From: Acidimicrobiia bacterium
GTDB lineage: Bacteria > Actinomycetota > Acidimicrobiia > Spongiisociales > ZC4RG35
Assembly: GCA_040905905.1 (NCBI GenBank)
Contig: JBBDQN010000057.1
Span: 165-64,164 of the forward strand
Direction of reading: 5' to 3'
Length of the DNA stretch: 64,000 nucleotides
The position numbers were made by a program, and so were the translations under genes. Shown piece by piece: positions 20,300 through 30,244 of this stretch. Position 1 is the stretch's first letter; each line of letters begins with the position of its first letter. The notes under the pieces are model-generated. The model saw nothing but the letters and a program-made list of their open reading frames with translations, had not been told where the DNA came from and searched no databases.

Positions 20300-21365
20300 G
20301 ACAAGGCTGCGCGATCTTGGTGTTGTCATCGGTCGCCTGCCCGTCGGCGAGAACAACGCGATCACCGATGTTCCGGGAATCCAGGTCGGCCACGTCACCG
20401 TCACCCGCGACGAACCAACCGTCGTGCGGACCGGGGTCACGATGGTTGTCCCCCGCGAGAACACGATCTGGGACGACTACGCCTTCTGCGGTTGGCACTC
20501 CTTCAATGGCAACGGGGAGATGACCGGCCTGCCGTGGATCGACGAAAGCGGGATGCTTGGCTCTCCGATTGGAATCACCAACACTCACCAGGTCGGGCTG
20601 GTGCGTGATTCCCTGGTCAGATACGCGGTGGACAACCGCCAGGAGAAAGGTTTCATCCTTCCCGTCGTGGCCGAGACCTACGACGGGTGGTTGTCCGATG
20701 CCGGTTCGTTCCCACTGGTCGAAGCCGACGCCCTGGCTGCGGTGGATGGGGCCGCCGGAGGCAAGATAGCCGAGGGCAACGTTGGCGGTGGCACCGGCAT
20801 GATCTGTCACGAGTTCAAGGGAGGCATAGGCACCTCGTCGCGCGTGGTCGATCTGGCCATGCACACATACACGGTCGGCGTTCTCGTTCAAGCCAACTAC
20901 GGGTCCCGATCCGACCTTCGAATCGATGGAGTCCCGATCGGACGTTATCTCGGCTACGACCGGGTTCCGGCCCCCTGGCCCGACCAGGAGAGAGACGGCT
21001 CGATCATCGTCGTGATCGCCACCGACGCCCCGCTCATCCCCGTGCAGTGCAGCCGGCTGGCTCGCCGGGCGACAGTCGGCCTTGCCCGGGTAGGAGGCGT
21101 TGGACACAACGGCTCGGGCGACCTCTTTCTGGCCTTCGCTACCGGCAATCGTCTCCCGGCGGCAGTGAAGACGCCCCGGGAATTGCGGATGCTGCCCCAC
21201 GAATCTCTAGACAAGTTCTTCGTCGCCGTGGCCGACGCCACCGAAGAAGCGATTCTCAATGCGTTGCTGGCGGCCGAAACGATGACGGGTTACCGGAATC
21301 GAACCGCCCATGCCCTGCCCGTGGACGATGTGGTCGAGGTGCTCAAGCGTTACCCGGCCGTCTGA
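20298..21365 (+). CDS. DmpA/OAT-family (peptidase S58/P1) L-aminopeptidase/D-esterase.
   Basis: The N-terminus LRDLGVVIGRLPVGENNAITDVPGIQVGHVTV is typical of DmpA. GTG start. Confidence 0.8.
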   Translation: MTRLRDLGVVIGRLPVGENNAITDVPGIQVGHVTVTRDEPTVVRTGVTMVVPRENTIWDDYAFCGWHSFNGNGEMTGLPWIDESGMLGSPIGITNTHQVGLVRDSLVRYAVDNRQEKGFILPVVAETYDGWLSDAGSFPLVEADALAAVDGAAGGKIAEGNVGGGTGMICHEFKGGIGTSSRVVDLAMHTYTVGVLVQANYGSRSDLRIDGVPIGRYLGYDRVPAPWPDQERDGSIIVVIATDAPLIPVQCSRLARRATVGLARVGGVGHNGSGDLFLAFATGNRLPAAVKTPRELRMLPHESLDKFFVAVADATEEAILNALLAAETMTGYRNRTAHALPVDDVVEVLKRYPAV

Positions 21366-22482
21366 ACCGTGCCGGTGAAAGTGCGGCCAGGTCGAGACCC
21401 ACAGCCATCTGGGCGGGAGGAGCTTCACCCTTGGTGACCAAGAAAGCGGTCAACTCGCCCGCGGCCGGGGCGGTTTGGATCCCGGTGCCCCCCTGGCCGA
21501 CCAGCCAGAAAAACCCGGGATGATCGACATCAAAGCCGATCACCATGGCCCGATCGGGCACAAAACTGCGGAGCCCTGCCCAGGCGGATCGCACGGTCGT
21601 GATGTCGAGGGTGGTGGCGGCATTGATCCGTTCGATCGCTAGCGCCACATCGAGTTGATCCGGTCTGGCATCACCAGGAGGCACCGGGGTCTCGTCTGCC
21701 AGGGAACAGAGGATCTGGGTACCGTCGGGCCGGAGGTAGAAGCCGTTGTCCACGTCGGCCACCAGCGGCCACCCGGCGTAGGAGATATCCCCGGGAACCA
21801 TGAAGGCCGTCCGCCGCCTGGGCTCCAACCCCACCGGCTCCACCCCCCCAAGCGAGGCGACGATGTCGCCCCACGCCCCGGCCGCATCAATCACCACGTC
21901 AGCCGCCATGCTGTGGTGGGGGGTGGTCACCAGCCATCCTGTACCGGTCTCGGCAAGAGCGGTTACGGGGGCAGAGGTGACGATGGCCGCACCTACCTTG
22001 CGCATTCCCCGGACAAACGACTGGTGGATCGATGCCACATCGAGATCGAGGGCATCGGGTACGAGAATTGCGCCGGAGAGCTGGTCCGGTCGCAGAACGG
22101 GAACCAGGGCCATGGCTTCCGCGGGGCTGAGGCGCACGGCCGACGATCCCGCTAAGTCGAATTCTCGATCCAACGAGCCAACTTGATGATGCCGACCTAT
22201 CCACATCGCCCCTCGCCGCTCGAGAAACCTCACATCGGCCAGACCCTCAGGGGGGTCCTCGAAGAAGGACCGGCTGGCTTTGGTCAGCGGGCGGATCGCG
22301 GCGGCGCCGTACTCTTCGAAATAGAGCGCTGCCGACCGGCCGGTGGAGTGGTAGGCGAGCGTCTTCTCCTGCTCGAACAAAGTGACCTCACACCCTGCGA
22401 GGGCGAGGTGGTATCCGGCAGAAACTCCGGCGATGCCTCCACCGACCACTACCACGGTTGGCATCGAGCGGCCTGTCGCCAT
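21343..22482 (-). CDS. FAD-dependent oxidoreductase (DAO family; glycine/D-amino-acid oxidase-like).
   Basis: TVVVVGGGIAGVSAGYHLALAG is an FAD GxGxxG motif. I trimmed the start to the ATG at 22482, with an alternative at 22464. The track start at 22617 is an extension. Confidence 0.75.
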   Translation of the reverse strand: MATGRSMPTVVVVGGGIAGVSAGYHLALAGCEVTLFEQEKTLAYHSTGRSAALYFEEYGAAAIRPLTKASRSFFEDPPEGLADVRFLERRGAMWIGRHHQVGSLDREFDLAGSSAVRLSPAEAMALVPVLRPDQLSGAILVPDALDLDVASIHQSFVRGMRKVGAAIVTSAPVTALAETGTGWLVTTPHHSMAADVVIDAAGAWGDIVASLGGVEPVGLEPRRRTAFMVPGDISYAGWPLVADVDNGFYLRPDGTQILCSLADETPVPPGDARPDQLDVALAIERINAATTLDITTVRSAWAGLRSFVPDRAMVIGFDVDHPGFFWLVGQGGTGIQTAPAAGELTAFLVTKGEAPPAQMAVGLDLAALSPARFRRPGNA

Positions 22483-22519
22483 CGCCGCGCCAGGGTAAAC
22501 CGACCGGTACCTTGCTCGA

Positions 22520-23185
22520 ATGCCGGTCGAGCCGCCACCGAGCCGTTTCCGATTTCCCTCACCGACAACGAGTGACGACGACGTAGTGGCGGTCGGGGGA
22601 GATCTTGAGCCCGGCACTCTTCTGATGGCCTACCGATCCGGCCTTTTCCCCATGCACCTTCCCGATGGGCGGCTGGGATGGTGGTCACCGCTCCGCCGTG
22701 GCGTGCTCCCTCTGGACGGCATGAGAGTAAGCCGCTCCTTGCGGAAGTCCTACGGTCGTTTTTCGTATACGGTCGATACCGATCCCGGGGCGGTGATCGC
22801 AGGCTGTAGCGACCCATCCCGTACCCAGGGCTGGATCACCCCCGAGATCGGTGCCGCCTACTTACGGCTTCAGCACCTGGGCTGGGTCCATTCGATTGAG
22901 GTGTGGTCGTCGACTGGCGAACTCGCCGGGGGTCTTTACGGCGTCGGGATCGGGGGTTTGTTCGCGGGTGAGTCGATGTTCACCCGCCGCTCCGACGCCT
23001 CCAAGTGTGCGTTGCTCCATCTGGTCGAGCTGCTCCGCAACGGGGGGGCCACGCTGCTTGATACGCAATGGGCGACAACCCATCTCCAGTCTCTGGGGGT
23101 GATCGAACTCGATCGCAGCGACTACCTCGCGCAGTTGCGAGACGCCCTAGCCCACCAGGGACCATGGGGGTCGGGCGACCGGTAG
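22520..23185 (+). CDS. aat: Leucyl/phenylalanyl-tRNA--protein transferase.
   Basis: LLMAYRSGLFPM, GESMFTRRSDASK and a Leu_Phe_trans family C-terminus. 221 aa. Confidence 0.8.
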   Translation: MPVEPPPSRFRFPSPTTSDDDVVAVGGDLEPGTLLMAYRSGLFPMHLPDGRLGWWSPLRRGVLPLDGMRVSRSLRKSYGRFSYTVDTDPGAVIAGCSDPSRTQGWITPEIGAAYLRLQHLGWVHSIEVWSSTGELAGGLYGVGIGGLFAGESMFTRRSDASKCALLHLVELLRNGGATLLDTQWATTHLQSLGVIELDRSDYLAQLRDALAHQGPWGSGDR

Positions 23186-23197
23186 AGTCGAAACGCC

Positions 23198-24070
23198 TTG
23201 GAGGGTGGATCAGCAGCTGGACGGGTCGTGGCCGGCGTCGACCTAACACCAATCGGTCGCAGAGTGGCCGAACGCGGCCGTTTGGTGGCCGAAGCCCACG
23301 GCCTCGACCTGCACCTGGTCACCGTGAGCGAGTCCTCATCTGAGGCCCTTCTGGATGACGGGTTGGGAAAGATCCTGTTTGATCACCACCGCCAACATGT
23401 GAACGATCTGGCGGCGTGGTGCCAGAGCCGGAGTCAGCTGACGGTGAGCCATGAGGCAGTGAAAGGTTCCATCGGCTGGGAACTGGTCCGGCGGGCGAAA
23501 ACCGCGTCATTGGTGGTGGTAGGGACATCGTCGGTGGACGTCGAGCGTTGTGGTCCTATAGCCCGCCGTATAGCGATCATGTCGACGGGGGACGTTCTCG
23601 TGGTTCGCCGGCAACCTCGCACCGGCTACCGAAAAGTGATGGCGGCCGTCGACCTCTCCGCCCATTCGCGACAGGCCGTTGACAAGGCCTTGGCGTGGAA
23701 TCCCGAGGCCGACGTTACCGCGATATTTGCCCTCCCCTCCCGCTGGGACCCCGCCCTGACCGGGGCCGGGCTCTTTGACGTCGAGCTTGCGGCCTCCCGC
23801 AGGTCACGCATGCAGCGGGCCGTCGAGGAGATGGAGGAGTTCGCCGCCAATTGGCCCGGAAGGGTCAAGCCGATGGTCGTCGATGGACCCCCCCACACTG
23901 CCATCGATGAGGCCGTCCGGCGCCGGGGAGCCGATTTGGTGGTTGTCGCCAATCGCGGCGCCGGGGCCACGAAGATGGTCTTGCTGGGGACGGTCGCCGA
24001 CGGCGTTTTGGAGGCCATGCCCTGCGATGTCCTGGTAGCGAGGGTCCCCGGGGAGTTTCGCCGCCCCTAG
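23198..24070 (+). CDS. Universal stress protein with tandem UspA domains.
   Basis: Two Usp-like halves. The C-terminal half carries the ATP-binding-type motif VVVANRGAGATKMVLLGTVADGVL. Confidence 0.7.
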   Translation: MEGGSAAGRVVAGVDLTPIGRRVAERGRLVAEAHGLDLHLVTVSESSSEALLDDGLGKILFDHHRQHVNDLAAWCQSRSQLTVSHEAVKGSIGWELVRRAKTASLVVVGTSSVDVERCGPIARRIAIMSTGDVLVVRRQPRTGYRKVMAAVDLSAHSRQAVDKALAWNPEADVTAIFALPSRWDPALTGAGLFDVELAASRRSRMQRAVEEMEEFAANWPGRVKPMVVDGPPHTAIDEAVRRRGADLVVVANRGAGATKMVLLGTVADGVLEAMPCDVLVARVPGEFRRP

Positions 24071-24117
24071 GGGTGAAAATGCTCACTATCAGGCGCCGGG
24101 ATGCCGACATATGAGGT

Positions 24118-24801
24118 GTGGCCAACGTAACCAAAATGGACCACATTTCCGATGCACGGATCCTGGTGGTCGAAGACCAACCAGCCGACCGACATCTGAT
24201 CGAGCAGGTCCTGGCAGCAGCCGGCTTTCGCAATGTCGGCCTTTCCTCCGACCCGCGCGCGGTGGCAACCGAGTTCGATCCTCTCCGGCTCGACCTTCTC
24301 GTACTGGACCTGTGGATGCCAGGTATGGATGGCTTTGCCCTCTTGCGCCAACTCCGGGAGCGGATCCCATCCGATTCGTATTTTCCGGTTTTGGTTATCA
24401 CAGCCGATGTCACTGTGGACACACGGCGACGGGCGCTGCTGGCCGGTGCCACCGACTTTCTCACCAAACCGATCGATGTGGTCGAGGTGACACTCCGGGT
24501 GAGACAGTTGCTAGAGACCCGCAGGCTCCAGGTTGAGCTCGCTCACCAGCGCAGACAGGTAGAGGTCACCATAAATGAACTACGGACGCCGCTGGCCAAT
24601 GTGCTTGAGGTGGCCCGGAAGCTCACGGAATCGATCAGTTCCCTGCCTTCGGATGAGACCGAGTACTTGATCCGGCTGATCGCCGAAGAGGCAAACGAGG
24701 CGGCGGTGATCATCAACGACCTGTTGGCCGGGGCACAGACAGACACCAACGGCGCCGCCGGCCACAACGATCCAGTCACGCTGCGCGTCCGGGCCCTTTA
24801 G
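24118..24801 (+). CDS. Response-regulator receiver domain fused to a degenerate HisKA/DHp-like helix in which the conserved His is replaced by Asn. It has no ATPase domain.
   Basis: REC: ILVVEDQPADR...LLVLDLWMPGMDG...TKP. The C-terminus carries INELRTPLANVLEVARKL, which can be compared with the H-box MSHELRTPLNSIIGFAQLL of the adjacent kinase. Confidence 0.8.
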   Translation: MANVTKMDHISDARILVVEDQPADRHLIEQVLAAAGFRNVGLSSDPRAVATEFDPLRLDLLVLDLWMPGMDGFALLRQLRERIPSDSYFPVLVITADVTVDTRRRALLAGATDFLTKPIDVVEVTLRVRQLLETRRLQVELAHQRRQVEVTINELRTPLANVLEVARKLTESISSLPSDETEYLIRLIAEEANEAAVIINDLLAGAQTDTNGAAGHNDPVTLRVRAL

Positions 24802-24804
24802 CTC

Positions 24805-26748
24805 ATGTACGAAAGCGGGTCCCTGCCCGGCACATTCGAGGACCACCAGGACGTTCTCGAGCATCTCATCGACTCCGGGCCGATCTTGATGTTCAGCGAG
24901 AGCCTCCCGGACCGAAGGATCTCATACGCAAGCGCAAACTTCGAGCGCCTCCTTGGTTATGCCCTCAGCGACGTAATAGGTGCTCGGCGGTTCTTTGCGG
25001 CTCTGATCGTCCCCGATGACCGGTCCCGATATGAGGAGCTGATGACCCGACTCGTCGCCGGTGAATCTGAAACTCGGGAAGGTGAATATGAGCTCATCGA
25101 CGGCCACGGCAACCGGCGGTGGTTCATGATCGCTTCCCGTCTGGACACCCGGGCAGACCTGCCCCACTCGCTCTTGGGGTACGCGGCCGACGTCACCGAT
25201 CGGGTGGTGGCCTTTCGCTTTGCCCGGGAGGCCGTCGAGAAGTACGAGGCGATTTTCACAGGAGTGCCCTCGGGGATTTTTCGCAGCTCGCCAGAAGGGA
25301 CGATTCTCGAAGCCAATCCAAAACTGGCAGAAATCCTTGGCTATGACTCCACCGACGACCTCAAACGCTTGGTACCCGATGTGGCTTCTCTCTATGTCGA
25401 TCCTCGCGAGCGACTTGGTTTCATGGAGCAGGTGGGCACCCACGGTTCGGTGCAGAACTTTGAGACCAAGCTCAGACGCCGCACGGGGGAGATAATCGAC
25501 ATTTCGATGAATGCCAGCGTCGTGCGCGACCGTGATGGGAGTGTGCTCGGTTTCGAAGGGACCCTGGTTGATGTGACCGACCAACGCCAGGCCGAAGCAG
25601 AGGCCCGCAAGGCGCGGGCGGAAGCCGATCGGGCTAACCAGGCCAAGAGTGTTTTCCTGTCTCGCATGAGCCACGAGCTGCGGACTCCGCTCAACTCGAT
25701 CATTGGGTTTGCCCAACTGCTCGAGTTTCGCGAGCCGGAACCAGGCGTGGCCGACGCCGCCCATCACATCATCAAGGGCGGGCAACACCTACTGGAGTTG
25801 ATAAACGAAGTCTTGGACATTGCCCGCGTCGAGGCCGGCCGTATTGCCATGAGCCTGGAACCGGTACACCTTGGTGATGCTATTGCGGATGCCCTGGAGC
25901 TGATTCGTCCACTGGCTGAGGCACGCCAGATTGCTGTCACCGGTGGCGGACATCAAGGCTGCCAACATCTCGTCCTGAGTGATCGACAACGGCTGAAGCA
26001 GGTCCTACTCAATTTGCTCTCGAATGCGGTCAAGTACAACCGTGAAGGCGGCAGCGTCGATGTCACCTGCAGCTGCGACGATCACCATGCGAGCGTGTCC
26101 GTCACCGACACGGGACCCGGGATCGCTCCCGAGCACCTCGGTCGTCTATTCGCTCCTTTTGACCGGCTGGCGGCCGATATCTCAGGCGAGGAGGGGACGG
26201 GATTGGGCCTCACCCTCTCGCGCCACCTCACAGAGGCGATGGGGGGAGTCCTCGATGTCGTTTCCGTCGTCGGTCATGGGTCAACATTCACAGTGACCCT
26301 GGCGTCCACCAACGCCACCGAGCGTCCGCGGCCAAGCGAGAACGGCGACGGCTCGGGGGCGGTAGCGAGGATGGTCGAAGAACGTTCGATCCTGTACGTC
26401 GAAGACAACCTCGCAAGTGTGACTCTCATCGAGCAGATCATGACCCTTCGACCCGGGATAACCTTGAAATCGGTGATGCAAGGCCGGCTAGGGCTTGACT
26501 TTGCTCGCGAACACCACCCCGACCTGATCCTGCTCGACATGAACCTCCCGGACACGTCGGGCAAAGAAGTGCTGAGCGAGCTGAAAATCGACCCACGGAC
26601 AGCGGATATCCCGGTTCTCATGCTCTCAGCGGATGCCAGTCCGGGCCAGATCCAGCGCCTGATGGACAGCGGCGCCGATGGGTATATAACAAAACCCCTC
26701 GACCTCCCTCACTTTTTGGAAGAGATCGACCGATTACTTCACCTGTGA
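24805..26748 (+). CDS. Hybrid sensor histidine kinase (PAS - HisKA - HATPase_c - REC).
   Basis: H-box SHELRTPLNSIIGF. N/G boxes NLLSNAVKYN and DTGPGI...GTGLGL. C-terminal REC (ILYVEDN...LLDMNLPDTSG...TKP). Confidence 0.9.
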   Translation: MYESGSLPGTFEDHQDVLEHLIDSGPILMFSESLPDRRISYASANFERLLGYALSDVIGARRFFAALIVPDDRSRYEELMTRLVAGESETREGEYELIDGHGNRRWFMIASRLDTRADLPHSLLGYAADVTDRVVAFRFAREAVEKYEAIFTGVPSGIFRSSPEGTILEANPKLAEILGYDSTDDLKRLVPDVASLYVDPRERLGFMEQVGTHGSVQNFETKLRRRTGEIIDISMNASVVRDRDGSVLGFEGTLVDVTDQRQAEAEARKARAEADRANQAKSVFLSRMSHELRTPLNSIIGFAQLLEFREPEPGVADAAHHIIKGGQHLLELINEVLDIARVEAGRIAMSLEPVHLGDAIADALELIRPLAEARQIAVTGGGHQGCQHLVLSDRQRLKQVLLNLLSNAVKYNREGGSVDVTCSCDDHHASVSVTDTGPGIAPEHLGRLFAPFDRLAADISGEEGTGLGLTLSRHLTEAMGGVLDVVSVVGHGSTFTVTLASTNATERPRPSENGDGSGAVARMVEERSILYVEDNLASVTLIEQIMTLRPGITLKSVMQGRLGLDFAREHHPDLILLDMNLPDTSGKEVLSELKIDPRTADIPVLMLSADASPGQIQRLMDSGADGYITKPLDLPHFLEEIDRLLHL

Positions 26749-27773
26749 CGGTGACCGACCAGCAGCTTTGGACCAGGCGCATCCTGGTGGTCGACGACCA
26801 TCAGGAGAACGTGTTGCTGTTGAGGGGCCTGCTCGCCGCGGGTGGCTATGTCAATGTCAGGGACACTCGCGATTCCAGACAGGTCATGTCGATCGTCGAC
26901 GCTTGGAACCCGGATCTGATCCTCCTCGATCTTCACATGCCTCACATCGACGGTCACACCTTGTTGACTCAGCTTGGCACGAGACGGTCTGATAGCTTCT
27001 TGCCCGTCCTGGTCCTTACCGCCGACGACACCATCGAGGCCAAACGCCGGGCGCTCGACGCCGGGGCGTCCGACTTTCTCCTCAAACCATTCGATCTGGT
27101 CGAGGTGCGGTTGCGGGTTCGCAACCTGCTCTTCACTCGATGTCTCCATCAGCAATTACTCGAGGGGCAGGCGCTTCTGGAGAATCGGGTTGAGGAGCGC
27201 ACTGCTGAACTGGCAGCCTCGCAACGGGAGATGATCGATCGCCTGGCATTGGCGGCCGAGTACCGCGACTATGCCACCGCCAAACACACCCAACGAGTCG
27301 GCATTCTCTCGGCCCGGATCGCGCTCGCATTGGGGTTGGACGACCGTGAGTTGGAGGTCATCCGGCTGGCGGCGCCCTTGCATGACATCGGCAAGATCGG
27401 TGTGCCTGACCACATCCTTCTGAAACCTGGACCCTTGACCGATCAGGAGTACGTCGAGGTCAAGAAACATGTGACCATCGGGGCGTCAATCCTCTCCGGT
27501 GGCACCACCGAGTTGCTCCACCGTGCCGAGCAGGTGGCCCTGACCCACCATGAACGCTGGGACGGCACCGGCTACCTGGGACTGGTCGGAGAGGACATTC
27601 CGTTATCCGCTCGGATAGTTTCCGTGGCCGACGTTTACGACGCGTTGATCTCGGTTCGTCCGTACAAGGATGCCTGGCCTCACGATGAGGCTGTTGGGGA
27701 GATCACCCGTCTGGCTGGTCTGCATTTTGACCCGAAGGTTGTTGAGGCCTTCTTGCAGACTTTCGAAGACTGA
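26745..27773 (+). CDS. Response regulator with an HD-GYP domain (probable c-di-GMP phosphodiesterase, RpfG-like).
   Basis: REC (ILVVDDHQ...LLDLHMPHIDG...LKP), then HD (PLHDIGKIGVPD) and HHERWDGTGYLGL, a GYP-motif variant. The start overlaps the kinase stop by 4 nt. Confidence 0.85.
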   Translation: MTVTDQQLWTRRILVVDDHQENVLLLRGLLAAGGYVNVRDTRDSRQVMSIVDAWNPDLILLDLHMPHIDGHTLLTQLGTRRSDSFLPVLVLTADDTIEAKRRALDAGASDFLLKPFDLVEVRLRVRNLLFTRCLHQQLLEGQALLENRVEERTAELAASQREMIDRLALAAEYRDYATAKHTQRVGILSARIALALGLDDRELEVIRLAAPLHDIGKIGVPDHILLKPGPLTDQEYVEVKKHVTIGASILSGGTTELLHRAEQVALTHHERWDGTGYLGLVGEDIPLSARIVSVADVYDALISVRPYKDAWPHDEAVGEITRLAGLHFDPKVVEAFLQTFED

Positions 27774-27857: not shown

Positions 27858-28334
27858 ATGAGGACTGCACTCTGGGGGCTGGCCTTCCTGGTGATTGGTG
27901 TGGCGGCGAGTTTCGCCATCGGCCAACAGGAGGCGACCTCGGCCGATCCCTGTCGGTACGGAGCGGTAAGTTCAGCCTTGCTACCTCCCGAAATGACTCC
28001 GGAGCTTGAAGTGATCTCAACCGAGTCCAAAGAGGAACTGCTTAACACCCTCGCCAGCTTTTACACCAGCGGGCCAGCACCTGATGGAACTTTGGCAGGA
28101 GTAACAGCCGCCCTGAGTCGAATACCAAACAACACCGATCGTTTCGCTCAGGCCCAGGTGAACATACCCGAGGGCACCGTCGCCTTCATCGACAATGCTG
28201 GAAATGAACTAGCCAAAGTGACGATCATCGAGTTCAAAGGCCGCTGGCTGCCCATACATTCGGACGTGTGCGAAGCCACGCCTGGTGCCTCAAGGTTCGA
28301 GCTTCTTGGTTTGTACGTAGAGGACAATTCATGA
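27858..28334 (+). CDS. Small secreted hypothetical protein (signal peptide, 2 Cys) in a lower-GC segment.
   Basis: MRTALWGLAFLVIGVAASFAIGQQ is a signal peptide. There are many A/T-ending codons, and local GC drops to about 50% towards the 3' end. No recognisable domain. Confidence 0.45.
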   Translation: MRTALWGLAFLVIGVAASFAIGQQEATSADPCRYGAVSSALLPPEMTPELEVISTESKEELLNTLASFYTSGPAPDGTLAGVTAALSRIPNNTDRFAQAQVNIPEGTVAFIDNAGNELAKVTIIEFKGRWLPIHSDVCEATPGASRFELLGLYVEDNS

Positions 28335-28453: not shown

Positions 28454-28529
28454 GGGCCGGTAGCTCAATGGTCAGAGCAGCGGACTCATAATCCGTTGGT
28501 TGCAGGTTCGAGCCCTGCCCGGCCCACCA
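28454..28529 (+). tRNA. tRNA with anticodon CAT (elongator tRNA-Met, or a tRNA-Ile2 that would be lysidine-modified). CCA is encoded.
   Basis: Cloverleaf folded by hand. Acceptor GGGCCGG/CCGGCCC, D-stem GCTC/GAGC, anticodon stem GCGGA/TCCGT with loop CTCATAA, and T-arm GCAGG-TTCGAGC-CCTGC. G1-C72 is paired, so it is not an initiator. Confidence 0.9.
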
Positions 28530-29143
28530 TGACCACAGTGAGTGCAATTGAGGCCCGCATCCTCGGGGTGCTAGTGGAGAAACAGATGACCACTCCCGAC
28601 ATCTATCCGCTCACACTGGCCGGCGTGGTGGCGGGAAGCAACCAATCCACCAACCGTGACCCTGTGATGTCAGTGAGTGAAAGGGAGGCCGAGGCCGCCT
28701 TGACTCGGCTCCATGAGATCGGATTGGCGACACCGGTTCGAAGGCCTGCCGACCGGGCCCTCAAGTATCGGCACAAGCTCACCGAAGCGCTGGAGCTCGA
28801 TCAGCCCACGCTGGCGGTGTTGGCTGTGCTTCTGCTCCGTGGACCGCAAACGGTTGGTGAACTGCGCCAACGCACCGAGCGCTACGTGACGTTCGACACC
28901 ATCGAAGACGTCGAGCGGATCGTCGACCGCCTCGAAGAGTTAGATCTGGCCAGGCGTCTAGCCCGGCAGCCGGGTCAGAGCCAGCGGCGCGTCAAGGAAC
29001 TCATGTCGGATGGCGGCACAGATGTCGACCAAGCACACACGCCAACAGTTGACGTGGGGACCAATGAGCTTGAAATACGTGTTGCCGCGCTGGAAAAGCG
29101 CTTCGACGAACTCTTACGCAGACTTGGTGTGGACGACTTATGA
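28529..29143 (+). CDS. YceH/DUF480 (UPF0502) family protein.
   Basis: MTTVSAIEARILGVLVEKQMTTPDIYPLTLAGVVAGSNQSTNRDPVMSVSEREAEAAL aligns closely with the E. coli YceH N-terminus. The homologous start ATG at 28529 shares its A with the tRNA 3'-terminal CCA. The track's TTG at 28496 would lie inside the tRNA. Confidence 0.8.
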   Translation: MTTVSAIEARILGVLVEKQMTTPDIYPLTLAGVVAGSNQSTNRDPVMSVSEREAEAALTRLHEIGLATPVRRPADRALKYRHKLTEALELDQPTLAVLAVLLLRGPQTVGELRQRTERYVTFDTIEDVERIVDRLEELDLARRLARQPGQSQRRVKELMSDGGTDVDQAHTPTVDVGTNELEIRVAALEKRFDELLRRLGVDDL

Positions 29144-30244
29144 CGCTGGCGGTCCGTGGTTGTGTTGTCTTATGAGTCGTCGGCGTTGGGGTGGACTGTC
29201 GGGGTCGATCCGATAGCCGAGCCCGTGGATAGCGACATGATGATGAAACCAACACAACAGAGCCAGGTTGGTGGGGTCGTGATCGCCGCCTTGTGACCAT
29301 TCCCTGATGTGGTGGGGTTGGAGCCGATAGCGGGATCGGCAGCCGTCGATGACACAGATCCCCTGGTCCCGGTTCCACACATGCGAACGGACCGCCGGGG
29401 GGATCGTCTCTGATAGGTCGGATACTCCGATTGGCCGGCTGTCGTCACCGGCGAAGATGATCCTGACCCTCCCGGTGCAGAGAATCTCGGAGAGGGTGTT
29501 GGGTCCAGCCCGCAGTCCTGACGACAACGTCACCCCGGCTTCCCCGAAGGTGGGGGCGGCCAGGTGGGCGTCGATGAAGATCTCGGCGACGGTCACTTCC
29601 CGACCCTCGGATCCTTCCGAGCCGCCGGTGAGAGAGTCGAGACAGACCGAGGTCAATGCATCCGCCAACCGTTGGTTCCGACTTTCACCTGGAAGAGGTG
29701 TGAACCCGTCGGCCTTCTGCAACAAGGCCTTCTCCACCAGTTGACCGTCCATACCGGCCAGCAACCCCCACAGCCGCCAGGCAGATTCGTCCAGGTTGGG
29801 CTGGATCACCAGGAAACGGTCAGCAACAGTTGCGACCTCATCGGTGGCGGCGATCCGCTTGCGGGCAGCCACGAGCCGTTCCAACCCCGCCAGATCAAAC
29901 CCCAAAGACGCAGCCATCTCGGAATCGGAAGCGCCCGCCAGGCGGAGACGGGCCATCAGCACCGCCCGCTCCAACCCGATCTCCCCGGAAGCCAACAGGC
30001 CCTCCACCTTGCGGTCTTCGGCTCGGGCAAGAAACACGAGGTCCCGGGCTATCGGATGCGACACATCGAGACGGGAAGCCACCCACTCCACCATGGTCCG
30101 GGACCCGTCAGCAGTAGCTACCTGGTCGAGATCCAACCTGCGGAGAAGCTCCAACTGACGGGCCCACACCTGTCCATGGACCCGGTGGGAGACCAACAGG
30201 TCCTGTTCCAAGGTATCGATTGTCCGGTTTCCCACTCCGTACAT
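29138..30244 (-). CDS. DUF222 + HNH endonuclease domain protein (REP13E12-like family).
   Basis: C-terminal HNH motif CVIDGCRSRYRLQPHHIREWSQGGDHDPTNLALLCWFHH. The N-terminal DUF222-like region is Ala/Leu-rich. Confidence 0.8.
   Translation of the reverse strand: MYGVGNRTIDTLEQDLLVSHRVHGQVWARQLELLRRLDLDQVATADGSRTMVEWVASRLDVSHPIARDLVFLARAEDRKVEGLLASGEIGLERAVLMARLRLAGASDSEMAASLGFDLAGLERLVAARKRIAATDEVATVADRFLVIQPNLDESAWRLWGLLAGMDGQLVEKALLQKADGFTPLPGESRNQRLADALTSVCLDSLTGGSEGSEGREVTVAEIFIDAHLAAPTFGEAGVTLSSGLRAGPNTLSEILCTGRVRIIFAGDDSRPIGVSDLSETIPPAVRSHVWNRDQGICVIDGCRSRYRLQPHHIREWSQGGDHDPTNLALLCWFHHHVAIHGLGYRIDPDSPPQRRRLIRQHNHGPPAS

Follow-up and report, generated by a model that had tools for sequence, protein, structure and literature searches.

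How a soluble sensor kinase might control a cyclic di-GMP (c-di-GMP) phosphodiesterase, and what a short receiver protein encoded beside it contributes, are the questions raised by a four-gene cluster in a 64-kb stretch of DNA from an Acidimicrobiia bacterium (contig JBBDQN010000057.1; the whole stretch is referred to as the window). An original prediction, made from the sequence alone, had described the cluster as a signalling module, probably a multistep phosphorelay, ending in an HD-GYP phosphodiesterase. The list of open reading frames (ORFs) and direct reading of the sequence confirmed the four co-directional genes with their coordinates and tight junctions, and Pfam annotation agreed with the predicted architectures:

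23198..24070, + strand: gene 1, tandem universal stress protein (USP), 290 aa (ORF list, Pfam)
24118..24801, + strand: gene 2, REC domain plus DHp remnant, 227 aa (ORF list, Pfam, ortholog alignment, AlphaFold2 (AF2) model)
24805..26748, + strand: gene 3, soluble PAS-PAS hybrid histidine kinase, 647 aa (ORF list, Pfam, motifs)
26745..27773, + strand: gene 4, RpfG-family REC-HD-GYP response regulator, 342 aa (ORF list, Pfam, alignment with PmGH)

The USP ORF is separated from gene 2 by a 47-nt gap. Gene 2 and the kinase gene are joined as TAG(24799-24801)-ctc-ATG(24805), and the kinase and HD-GYP genes share a 4-nt GTGA stop/start overlap at 26745-26748. We propose that the cluster is probably a cytoplasmic two-component module that lowers c-di-GMP, with gene 2 as a side branch. 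This is ordinary two-component control of an RpfG-family HD-GYP phosphodiesterase, and the module type is already known. The new result, and the one unusual feature of the cluster, is the origin of gene 2, which is a former REC-HisKA-HATPase_c kinase cut down to a receiver and a helical hairpin.

Pfam annotation of gene 2 revealed a REC domain (E = 1.4e-24) and a HisKA match of 23.5 bits (cut-off 26.9) confined to profile positions 12-59. Gene 2 was searched against a database (matched proteins are labelled P0001 onwards, comparison loci L001 onwards), which yielded five short full-length relatives, namely P0001-P0003 (each 221 aa long and 86-95% identical) and P0004/P0005 (256 and 248 aa), together with a large family of REC-HisKA-HATPase_c kinases of about 385 aa (P0006-P0038), the closest of which are 57-60% identical by BLASTP. 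An exact look-up of the protein returned no record, and a scan of species-representative genomes gave no close ortholog, the best match being 51% identical. At the gene 2 position in L001 (8001-9170), L007/L008 and the contig of P0011 stands an intact REC-HisKA-HATPase_c kinase of 383-389 aa, within the syntenic order VanY, S58 peptidase, DAO, Aat, USP, REC-histidine kinase, PAS hybrid histidine kinase, REC-HD-GYP. The junction from the intact gene to the PAS kinase gene is 3-4 nt in L001 and L007, and becomes an overlap in a more distant contig whose gene 2 is 52% identical.

Comparison with the intact kinases revealed two in-frame deletions, both present in the window, L003, L004 and L005. 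The first took out 29 residues comprising the signalling helix together with its H-box His (…VTIN|ELRTPL…; junction at about 24576|24577, N147|E148), a length of 8.06 α-helical turns that preserves the helical phase. The second took out about 133 residues, the entire CA domain, with the terminal Ala-Leu-stop kept (junction at about 24792|24793). Gene 2 thus has neither the DHp His nor the CA/HATPase_c domain of a histidine kinase. An intermediate grade was found in L002 and L006, which are CA-less and retain the helix, with His kept in L002 and replaced by Arg in L006. By the identities of its kinase and USP, the window falls with L002 (kinase 79%) and not with L001 or L007 (65%). The simplest history would be a single loss of the CA domain, followed by a single loss of the helix and His.

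The remaining protein consists of two parts:

24136..24477, + strand: gene 2 receiver (CheY alignment; AF2 predicted local distance difference test score (pLDDT) above 90)
24478..24747, + strand: gene 2 helical hairpin (ortholog alignment, AF2 model)

Gene 2 may start at ATG 24136 instead of GTG 24118; this start, giving 221 aa, is the one called for most relatives. The intact relatives P0006 and P0007 share the N-terminal ANV(S/T)K extension of the GTG reading. In the 221-aa numbering, the key receiver residues are E13/D14, D58 (24307-24309), T89 and K111, all invariant across 19-37 relatives. The AF2 model has a mean pLDDT of 82 with a confident receiver. In the model, helix α5 of the receiver continues as one 55-residue helix (residues 115-169) that carries the H-box remnant N-ELRTPLANV; it is followed by a loop and a second helix (173-204), with disorder over the final 18 residues. 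A Foldseek search of the model against the PDB returned receiver-domain matches only and no analog of the whole architecture. Other short proteins with a REC domain and a helical tail occur in the same receiver subfamily. The gene 2 receiver is 51% identical to that of the HD-GYP protein, whereas each of the two is only 28-30% identical to the kinase receiver, and an RTAEL-type linker helix is common to gene 2 and the HD-GYP protein in the intact orthologs. A role of gene 2 as a dedicated phosphatase, acting through the ExxT next to the lost His, was also considered and down-weighted, as P0002/L005 has ELRRPL with the Thr changed to Arg.

To describe selection, ω (the ratio of nonsynonymous to synonymous divergence) was estimated between ortholog pairs by the Nei-Gojobori method with bootstrap intervals. 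The receiver of gene 2 is under strong purifying selection, with ω of about 0.10-0.15 (0.10-0.14 among the truncated forms at synonymous divergence (dS) up to about 1). It is as constrained as the other genes of the cluster, of which the kinase gave ω values of 0.09-0.19, the HD-GYP gene 0.06-0.11 and the USP, the most constrained and conserved of all, 0.03-0.06. The tail gave 0.25-0.47, with bootstrap intervals that exclude 1 in all seven truncated-form pairs; the matching segment between two intact orthologs gave 0.085. Within the tail, helix 1 with the H-box remnant had an ω of 0.21, compared with 0.51 in helix 2 and 0.37 at the C-terminus (pooled, non-independent pairs). No frameshift or stop was found in gene 2 across six independent contigs. 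Gene 2 is therefore a receiver protein under selection whose DHp-like hairpin is partly relaxed; it is not a kinase, and it is not simply a pseudogene either.

One member of the gene 2 family stands in another setting. In the contig of P0013 (JGI 3300056388), a REC-histidine kinase of this family heads a cluster of STAS, STAS, RsbW-like kinase, SpoIIE phosphatase and RsbU_N-histidine kinase-REC genes. The REC-gated kinase family thus appears to be wired into partner-switching modules as well.

The protein encoded by gene 3 carries every part of a hybrid HisKA-type kinase (all on the + strand):

aa about 35-134: PAS1 (Pfam)
aa about 145-259: PAS2 (Pfam)
aa 281-345: HisKA, with His290 at 25672-25674 (Pfam; motif SHELRTP at 289)
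aa 393-500: HATPase_c (N box NLLSNAVKY at 403, G1 box DTGPG at 435, G2 box GTGLGL at 464)
aa 529-641: C-terminal REC, with Asp578 at 26536-26538 (Pfam, CheY alignment)

The H, N, G1 and G2 boxes and the Asp of the C-terminal receiver are all present, and alignment with CheY places the receiver residues at E533/D534, D578, S608 and K630. Pfam found no HPt domain in the kinase. The predicted cytoplasmic PAS input is supported by the two PAS domains and by the lack of a transmembrane segment in any of the four proteins (maximal Kyte-Doolittle value over a 19-residue window, 1.39). The nature of the cue, suggested earlier to be redox, light or a small ligand, found no such support, as the PAS region contains no Cys and its only two relatives found in the PDB are both uncharacterised. 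The lack of Cys removes the photoadduct site, and LOV-type light sensing is therefore ruled out. The motif of the FATGUY-type intermediary receivers (PMC9981736) was sought by eye in the CheY alignment and is absent from the receivers of the kinase and gene 2.

Gene 4 encodes the predicted output of the module (all on the + strand):

aa 13-125: REC, with Asp62 at 26928-26930 (Pfam, E = 1.5e-26)
aa about 173-332: HD-GYP (Pfam HD_5/HD; HD_5 111.6 bits)
27273-27275: Ala177, at the position of PmGH E185
27546-27584: HHERWDGTGY-LGL loop (PmGH alignment)
aa 305-308: RPYK, the RxxK motif, kept in the orthologs

Its receiver has all the residues expected of the RpfG family by comparison with CheY (D17/D18, D62, T92 and K114). 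The best PDB match of the protein is PmGH of Persephonella marina, an active c-di-GMP phosphodiesterase (PDB 4MCW, E = 1.7e-51), and functional positions were mapped from the mutagenesis-defined PmGH residues (PMC4159591). In PmGH numbering, D183, H189, H221, D222, K225, H250, H276 and H277, as well as G284, Y285, D305, D308, R314 and K317, are kept in the window and three orthologs. The domain therefore retains seven of the eight PmGH metal ligands and every residue that binds c-di-GMP, as expected of a full HD-GYP domain. The original prediction had named the loss of metal ligands or of phospho-accepting aspartates as evidence that would speak against it; the seven ligands and the Asp of all three receivers are present. 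The NosR-family model NF053512 (REC/c-di-GMP phosphodiesterase) scored gene 4 at 155.8 bits, below its cut-off of 400.

At the position of the eighth ligand, E185, the window and L004 carry Ala, and L001 and L007 carry Asn. This substitution, overlooked by the earlier reader, is the one real deviation of the active site. A carboxylate at this position defines the trinuclear E/D-T-G subgroup, to which gene 4 does not belong; its loss marks a predicted binuclear subgroup that tends to stop at pGpG (PMC4159591; bioRxiv 10.1101/2021.11.05.467447). Because the third-metal ligand is Ala, gene 4 is expected to have a binuclear metal site and to yield mainly pGpG. The HD-GYPs that lack E185 form a large group (PMC4159591), some members of which have been reported to hydrolyse c-di-GMP (bioRxiv 10.1101/2021.11.05.467447), and the E185A mutant of PmGH is strongly impaired yet still active (PMC4159591).

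Attention had instead been drawn to GYL in place of GYP, taken as a variant that may alter activity or shift specificity to cyclic GMP-AMP (cGAMP). This interpretation did not hold. The motif HHERWDGTGYLGL, at residues 268-280, shows a single-residue gap at PmGH P286 (GY-LGL against GYPFGK), the Pro being deleted and not substituted, and GYL is conserved in all four orthologs. Of 51 related REC-HD-GYPs, 40 have the shorter loop without Pro and 10 have the Pro, and mutation of PmGH P286 to alanine caused no substantial loss of activity (PMC4159591). The missing Pro is therefore no argument against membership or activity. Moreover, the reported shifts to cGAMP map to the change of RxxK to RxxQ/N (bioRxiv 10.1101/2021.11.05.467447), and gene 4 has the canonical RPYK at R314/K317, which would fit specificity for c-di-GMP. 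Among the same 51 relatives (from P0039-P0120), the E185 position is Cys in 28. REC-HD-GYPs with this Cys and a GY-xGL loop look like a large, uncharacterised subclade with a different metal site.

Based on these features, we propose the following mechanism. The soluble PAS-PAS kinase would sense an intracellular cue and autophosphorylate His290; the catalytic motifs are present and the activity is expected from them. The phosphoryl group would pass directly from the kinase to Asp62 of the REC-HD-GYP protein, whose gene is translationally coupled, as suggested by the 4-nt overlap and by the recurrence of the gene pair. Upon phosphorylation, the receiver would control the HD-GYP domain, which by homology to PmGH and published structure-function data would cleave c-di-GMP mainly to pGpG. 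The receivers of the kinase (Asp578) and gene 2 (Asp58) would be side branches and not relay steps. The gene 2 receiver might compete for the common phosphodonor as a phosphate sink or buffer, might modulate the kinase through its hairpin, or both; competition for one donor is plausible because the receivers of gene 2 and the HD-GYP protein are 51%-identical paralogs. A competing phospho-acceptor or kinase modulator is thus the most likely role of gene 2. In the sister lineages, the intact gene 2 would supply a second, REC-gated kinase in the operon.

The wider distribution of the genes fits this scheme. A hybrid kinase gene is directly followed by a REC-HD-GYP gene in 14 of 80 loci, spread over Acidobacteriota, Abditibacteriota, Chloroflexota, Actinomycetota, Pseudomonadota and other phyla. 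Because of this recurrence the pair is a common cassette, to which the USP and gene 2 are lineage-specific additions. In three actinobacterial loci, a homologous kinase adjoins instead a REC-EAL protein of the same REC subfamily (L014 5046-7632, L031 5031-7365 and L029 2966-6254, from metagenome-assembled genomes of Acidimicrobiales/Actinomycetes), with receivers 51-53% identical to that of the window HD-GYP protein. The type of phosphodiesterase seems to have been swapped on a conserved receiver in these loci, and the replacement beside homologous kinases supports c-di-GMP hydrolysis as the conserved output. As originally predicted, none of the four proteins carries a DNA-binding domain recognised by Pfam.

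Several points weigh against the proposed mechanism. Hybrid kinases usually route phosphate via their own receiver to an HPt protein, and such a protein could be encoded outside the 64-kb window. Partner specificity normally lies in the α1 helices, and these are considerably different in the receivers of gene 2 and the HD-GYP protein; the sink or modulator role of gene 2 is drawn solely from residue conservation and paralogy. The gene 4 enzyme could be slow, given the marked drop in activity of PmGH E185A. Finally, membership of the USP in the pathway, for which adjacency is the basis, is a possibility only: among close relatives synteny extends over the whole region and takes in unrelated housekeeping genes, and the USP is absent from the distant cassettes.

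The true multistep relay that had been predicted would start with transfer from His290 to Asp578, continue through an HPt protein whose gene lies elsewhere in the genome, and end at Asp62, with the gene 2 receiver as another terminal acceptor. The kinase is indeed of the hybrid type and its C-terminal receiver is intact, a hybrid kinase also operates in the paradigm RpfC/RpfG system, and no more than 64 kb of the genome is visible. However, Pfam found no HPt domain in the four proteins, none appears in the annotations of the orthologs, and gene 2 cannot act as a His carrier of the Spo0B/ChpT type, its His having been deleted with the 29 residues. Across the 64-kb window, motif scans and tblastn with consensus queries revealed no GGDEF, EAL or HPt domain (best matches E of at least 0.08). 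The same queries detected GGDEF at 1e-39 and EAL at 1e-78 in control loci, so the predicted lack of a cognate GGDEF gene in the window stands; the HPt query was a hand-written consensus of a divergent family with no positive control, and the absence of HPt rests mainly on Pfam. As no component supplies the second phosphotransfer His, a His-Asp-His-Asp relay is unsupported in the visible sequence. The overlapping kinase and regulator genes further suggest a direct partnership, and we consider the relay unlikely.

Another explanation assigns to gene 2 the part of a REC-gated decoy or inhibitor, whose hairpin would dock on, or heterodimerise with, the DHp domain of the PAS kinase, tuned by phosphorylation of Asp58. 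The hairpin has been retained with ω below 1, most clearly in the helix of the H-box remnant (0.21), and its helical phase survived the 29-residue deletion. Precedents exist in VieB, which acts on VieS (PMC4352251), and in RetS, which inhibits GacS via DHp contacts (PMC12189002). However, helix 2 and the C-terminus are far less constrained (ω 0.4-0.5), and in the intact orthologs the DHp-CA region of gene 2 shares only about 36% identity with the kinase core. We consider a decoy unlikely. In an extended version, the three grades seen among the orthologs (intact; CA-less with His or Arg; CA-less with His and helix deleted) would record, in living lineages, a stepwise conversion of a receiver-gated kinase into a kinase-dead adaptor. 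Its phosphorylatable receiver would use the hairpin to cap the neighbouring PAS kinase or to heterodimerise with it, giving a feedback brake on c-di-GMP degradation that depends on phosphorylation and representing an undescribed class of REC-DHp pseudokinases. We regard this idea as quite unlikely.

The gene 2 tail might also be a functionless relic, its ORF being kept open so that ribosomes reach the coupled start of the kinase gene. Such a history would account for two deletions that are both in-frame, for the kept Ala-Leu-stop and 3-nt junction, and for a tail ω 3-5 times that of the intact orthologs. It is at odds with the tail intervals that exclude 1 in 7/7 truncated-form pairs, with a receiver constrained like the other genes at dS up to about 1, and with the uninterrupted frame across the six contigs, and is distinctly unlikely. 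That the HD-GYP protein is not mainly a c-di-GMP hydrolase, preferring 3'3'-cGAMP or, as in the degenerate HD-GYP HnoD, having low activity and a sensor or scaffold role, draws on the Ala at E185, the impaired PmGH E185A (PMC4159591) and the lack of a GGDEF gene in the window, but is very unlikely in view of the canonical RxxK (cGAMP shifts map to RxxQ/N; bioRxiv 10.1101/2021.11.05.467447), the invariance of all other catalytic residues, the REC-EAL proteins that hold the same position beside homologous kinases, and the large E185-less group, predicted binuclear (PMC4159591), with reported c-di-GMP-hydrolysing members (bioRxiv 10.1101/2021.11.05.467447).

Comparison with known systems places the proposed two-component module close to RpfC/RpfG of Xanthomonas, in which a hybrid sensor kinase gene likewise stands beside a REC-HD-GYP regulator gene and the system acts through c-di-GMP turnover and not by binding DNA. 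RpfC lies in the membrane and has an HPt domain of its own, whereas the window kinase is soluble, has PAS input and lacks HPt; RpfG lacks two of the PmGH metal ligands (PMC4159591), whereas gene 4 lacks E185 only. Gene 4 shares with PmGH seven of eight metal ligands, the catalytic D183/K225/D308, Y285 and RxxK, and differs from it by a REC instead of a GAF sensor domain, Ala at E185, and a loop that is Pro-less and one residue shorter. The best functional analog found for the predicted pathway is VieSAB of Vibrio cholerae, whose operon combines a hybrid kinase and a phosphodiesterase fused to a REC domain with an auxiliary protein that also contains a REC domain; this auxiliary, VieB, binds and inhibits the hybrid kinase that feeds the REC-fused c-di-GMP phosphodiesterase (PMC4352251). 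However, VieA carries EAL instead of HD-GYP, the C-terminus of VieB is TPR-like and not a DHp remnant, and the two systems have no sequence relationship.

Kinase-like proteins kept for non-kinase roles include RedE of the RedCDEF 'four-component' system (PMC2755868) and PhyT (PMC5898713). Like gene 2, DivL, RedE, PhyT and Spo0B/ChpT derive from histidine kinases and have been kept, in their case for phosphotransfer, phosphatase or scaffold roles. They retain a CA-like domain and, except for DivL, a phosphorylatable His, whereas gene 2 has neither and carries an N-terminal REC domain. The REC-DHp-CA kinases, in which an N-terminal receiver gates the kinase, such as the dual-sensor kinase 6OB8 and P0006-P0038, show the ancestral architecture of gene 2, with REC α5 running into the DHp helix; gene 2 of the window lacks their His, signalling helix and CA domain. 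If the proposed module is correct, it provides an Acidimicrobiia example of two-component c-di-GMP control via the less-studied E185-less class of HD-GYPs. The state of the second kinase (intact, without CA, or without both CA and His) is the only difference between the otherwise syntenic operons. These operons form a natural experiment, and their comparison could show how multikinase networks shed a kinase yet keep its receiver. The practical value is modest, and the current understanding of two-component and c-di-GMP signalling is unchallenged.

The USP itself contains two PF00582 stretches (E = 2.3e-25), and its orthologs are also called from GTG 23228, giving 280 aa. Its amino-acid identity to L001 and L007 is 87-88%, compared with 65% for the kinase. 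The C-terminal domain (residues about 144-282) bears a near-canonical nucleotide-binding motif, ANRGAGATKMVLLGT. Against the ATP-binding motif G-2x-G-9x-G(S/T) it reads A-2x-G-9x-G-T, identical in five orthologs, and the N-terminal domain gave no match.

The co-directional run exceeds the four genes. On the upstream side, 12 nt separate the end of a Leu/Phe-tRNA-protein transferase gene from the USP ORF; on the downstream side, a conserved gene for a 158-aa protein begins 84 nt after the HD-GYP gene, within the co-directional cluster:

27858-28334, + strand: 158-aa ORF with an N-terminal hydrophobic segment and no Pfam match, 73% identical to L001 12220-12678
28454-28529, + strand: tRNA-Met (anticodon CAT; Rfam), closing the co-directional cluster

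The 158-aa protein may share a transcript with the four genes. A scan for promoters and terminators gave counts no better than chance, and the Rfam scan revealed only a tRNA and no c-di-GMP riboswitch. Upstream, the divergent Leu/Phe-transferase gene (22520-23185, + strand) starts inside the ORF listed for a DAO oxidoreductase (21343-22617, - strand, 424 aa). Because the DAO orthologs have only 373-376 aa, the true start of the DAO gene probably lies further in, leaving a very short divergent intergenic region. Downstream, the tRNA-Met overlaps the nominal TTG start of a DUF480 ORF (28496-29143, + strand), whose true start is probably a downstream ATG giving MTTVSAIEAR. An HNH/DUF222 endonuclease-like gene (29138-30244, - strand), possibly a mobile insertion, lies at the point where the downstream synteny with L001 breaks.

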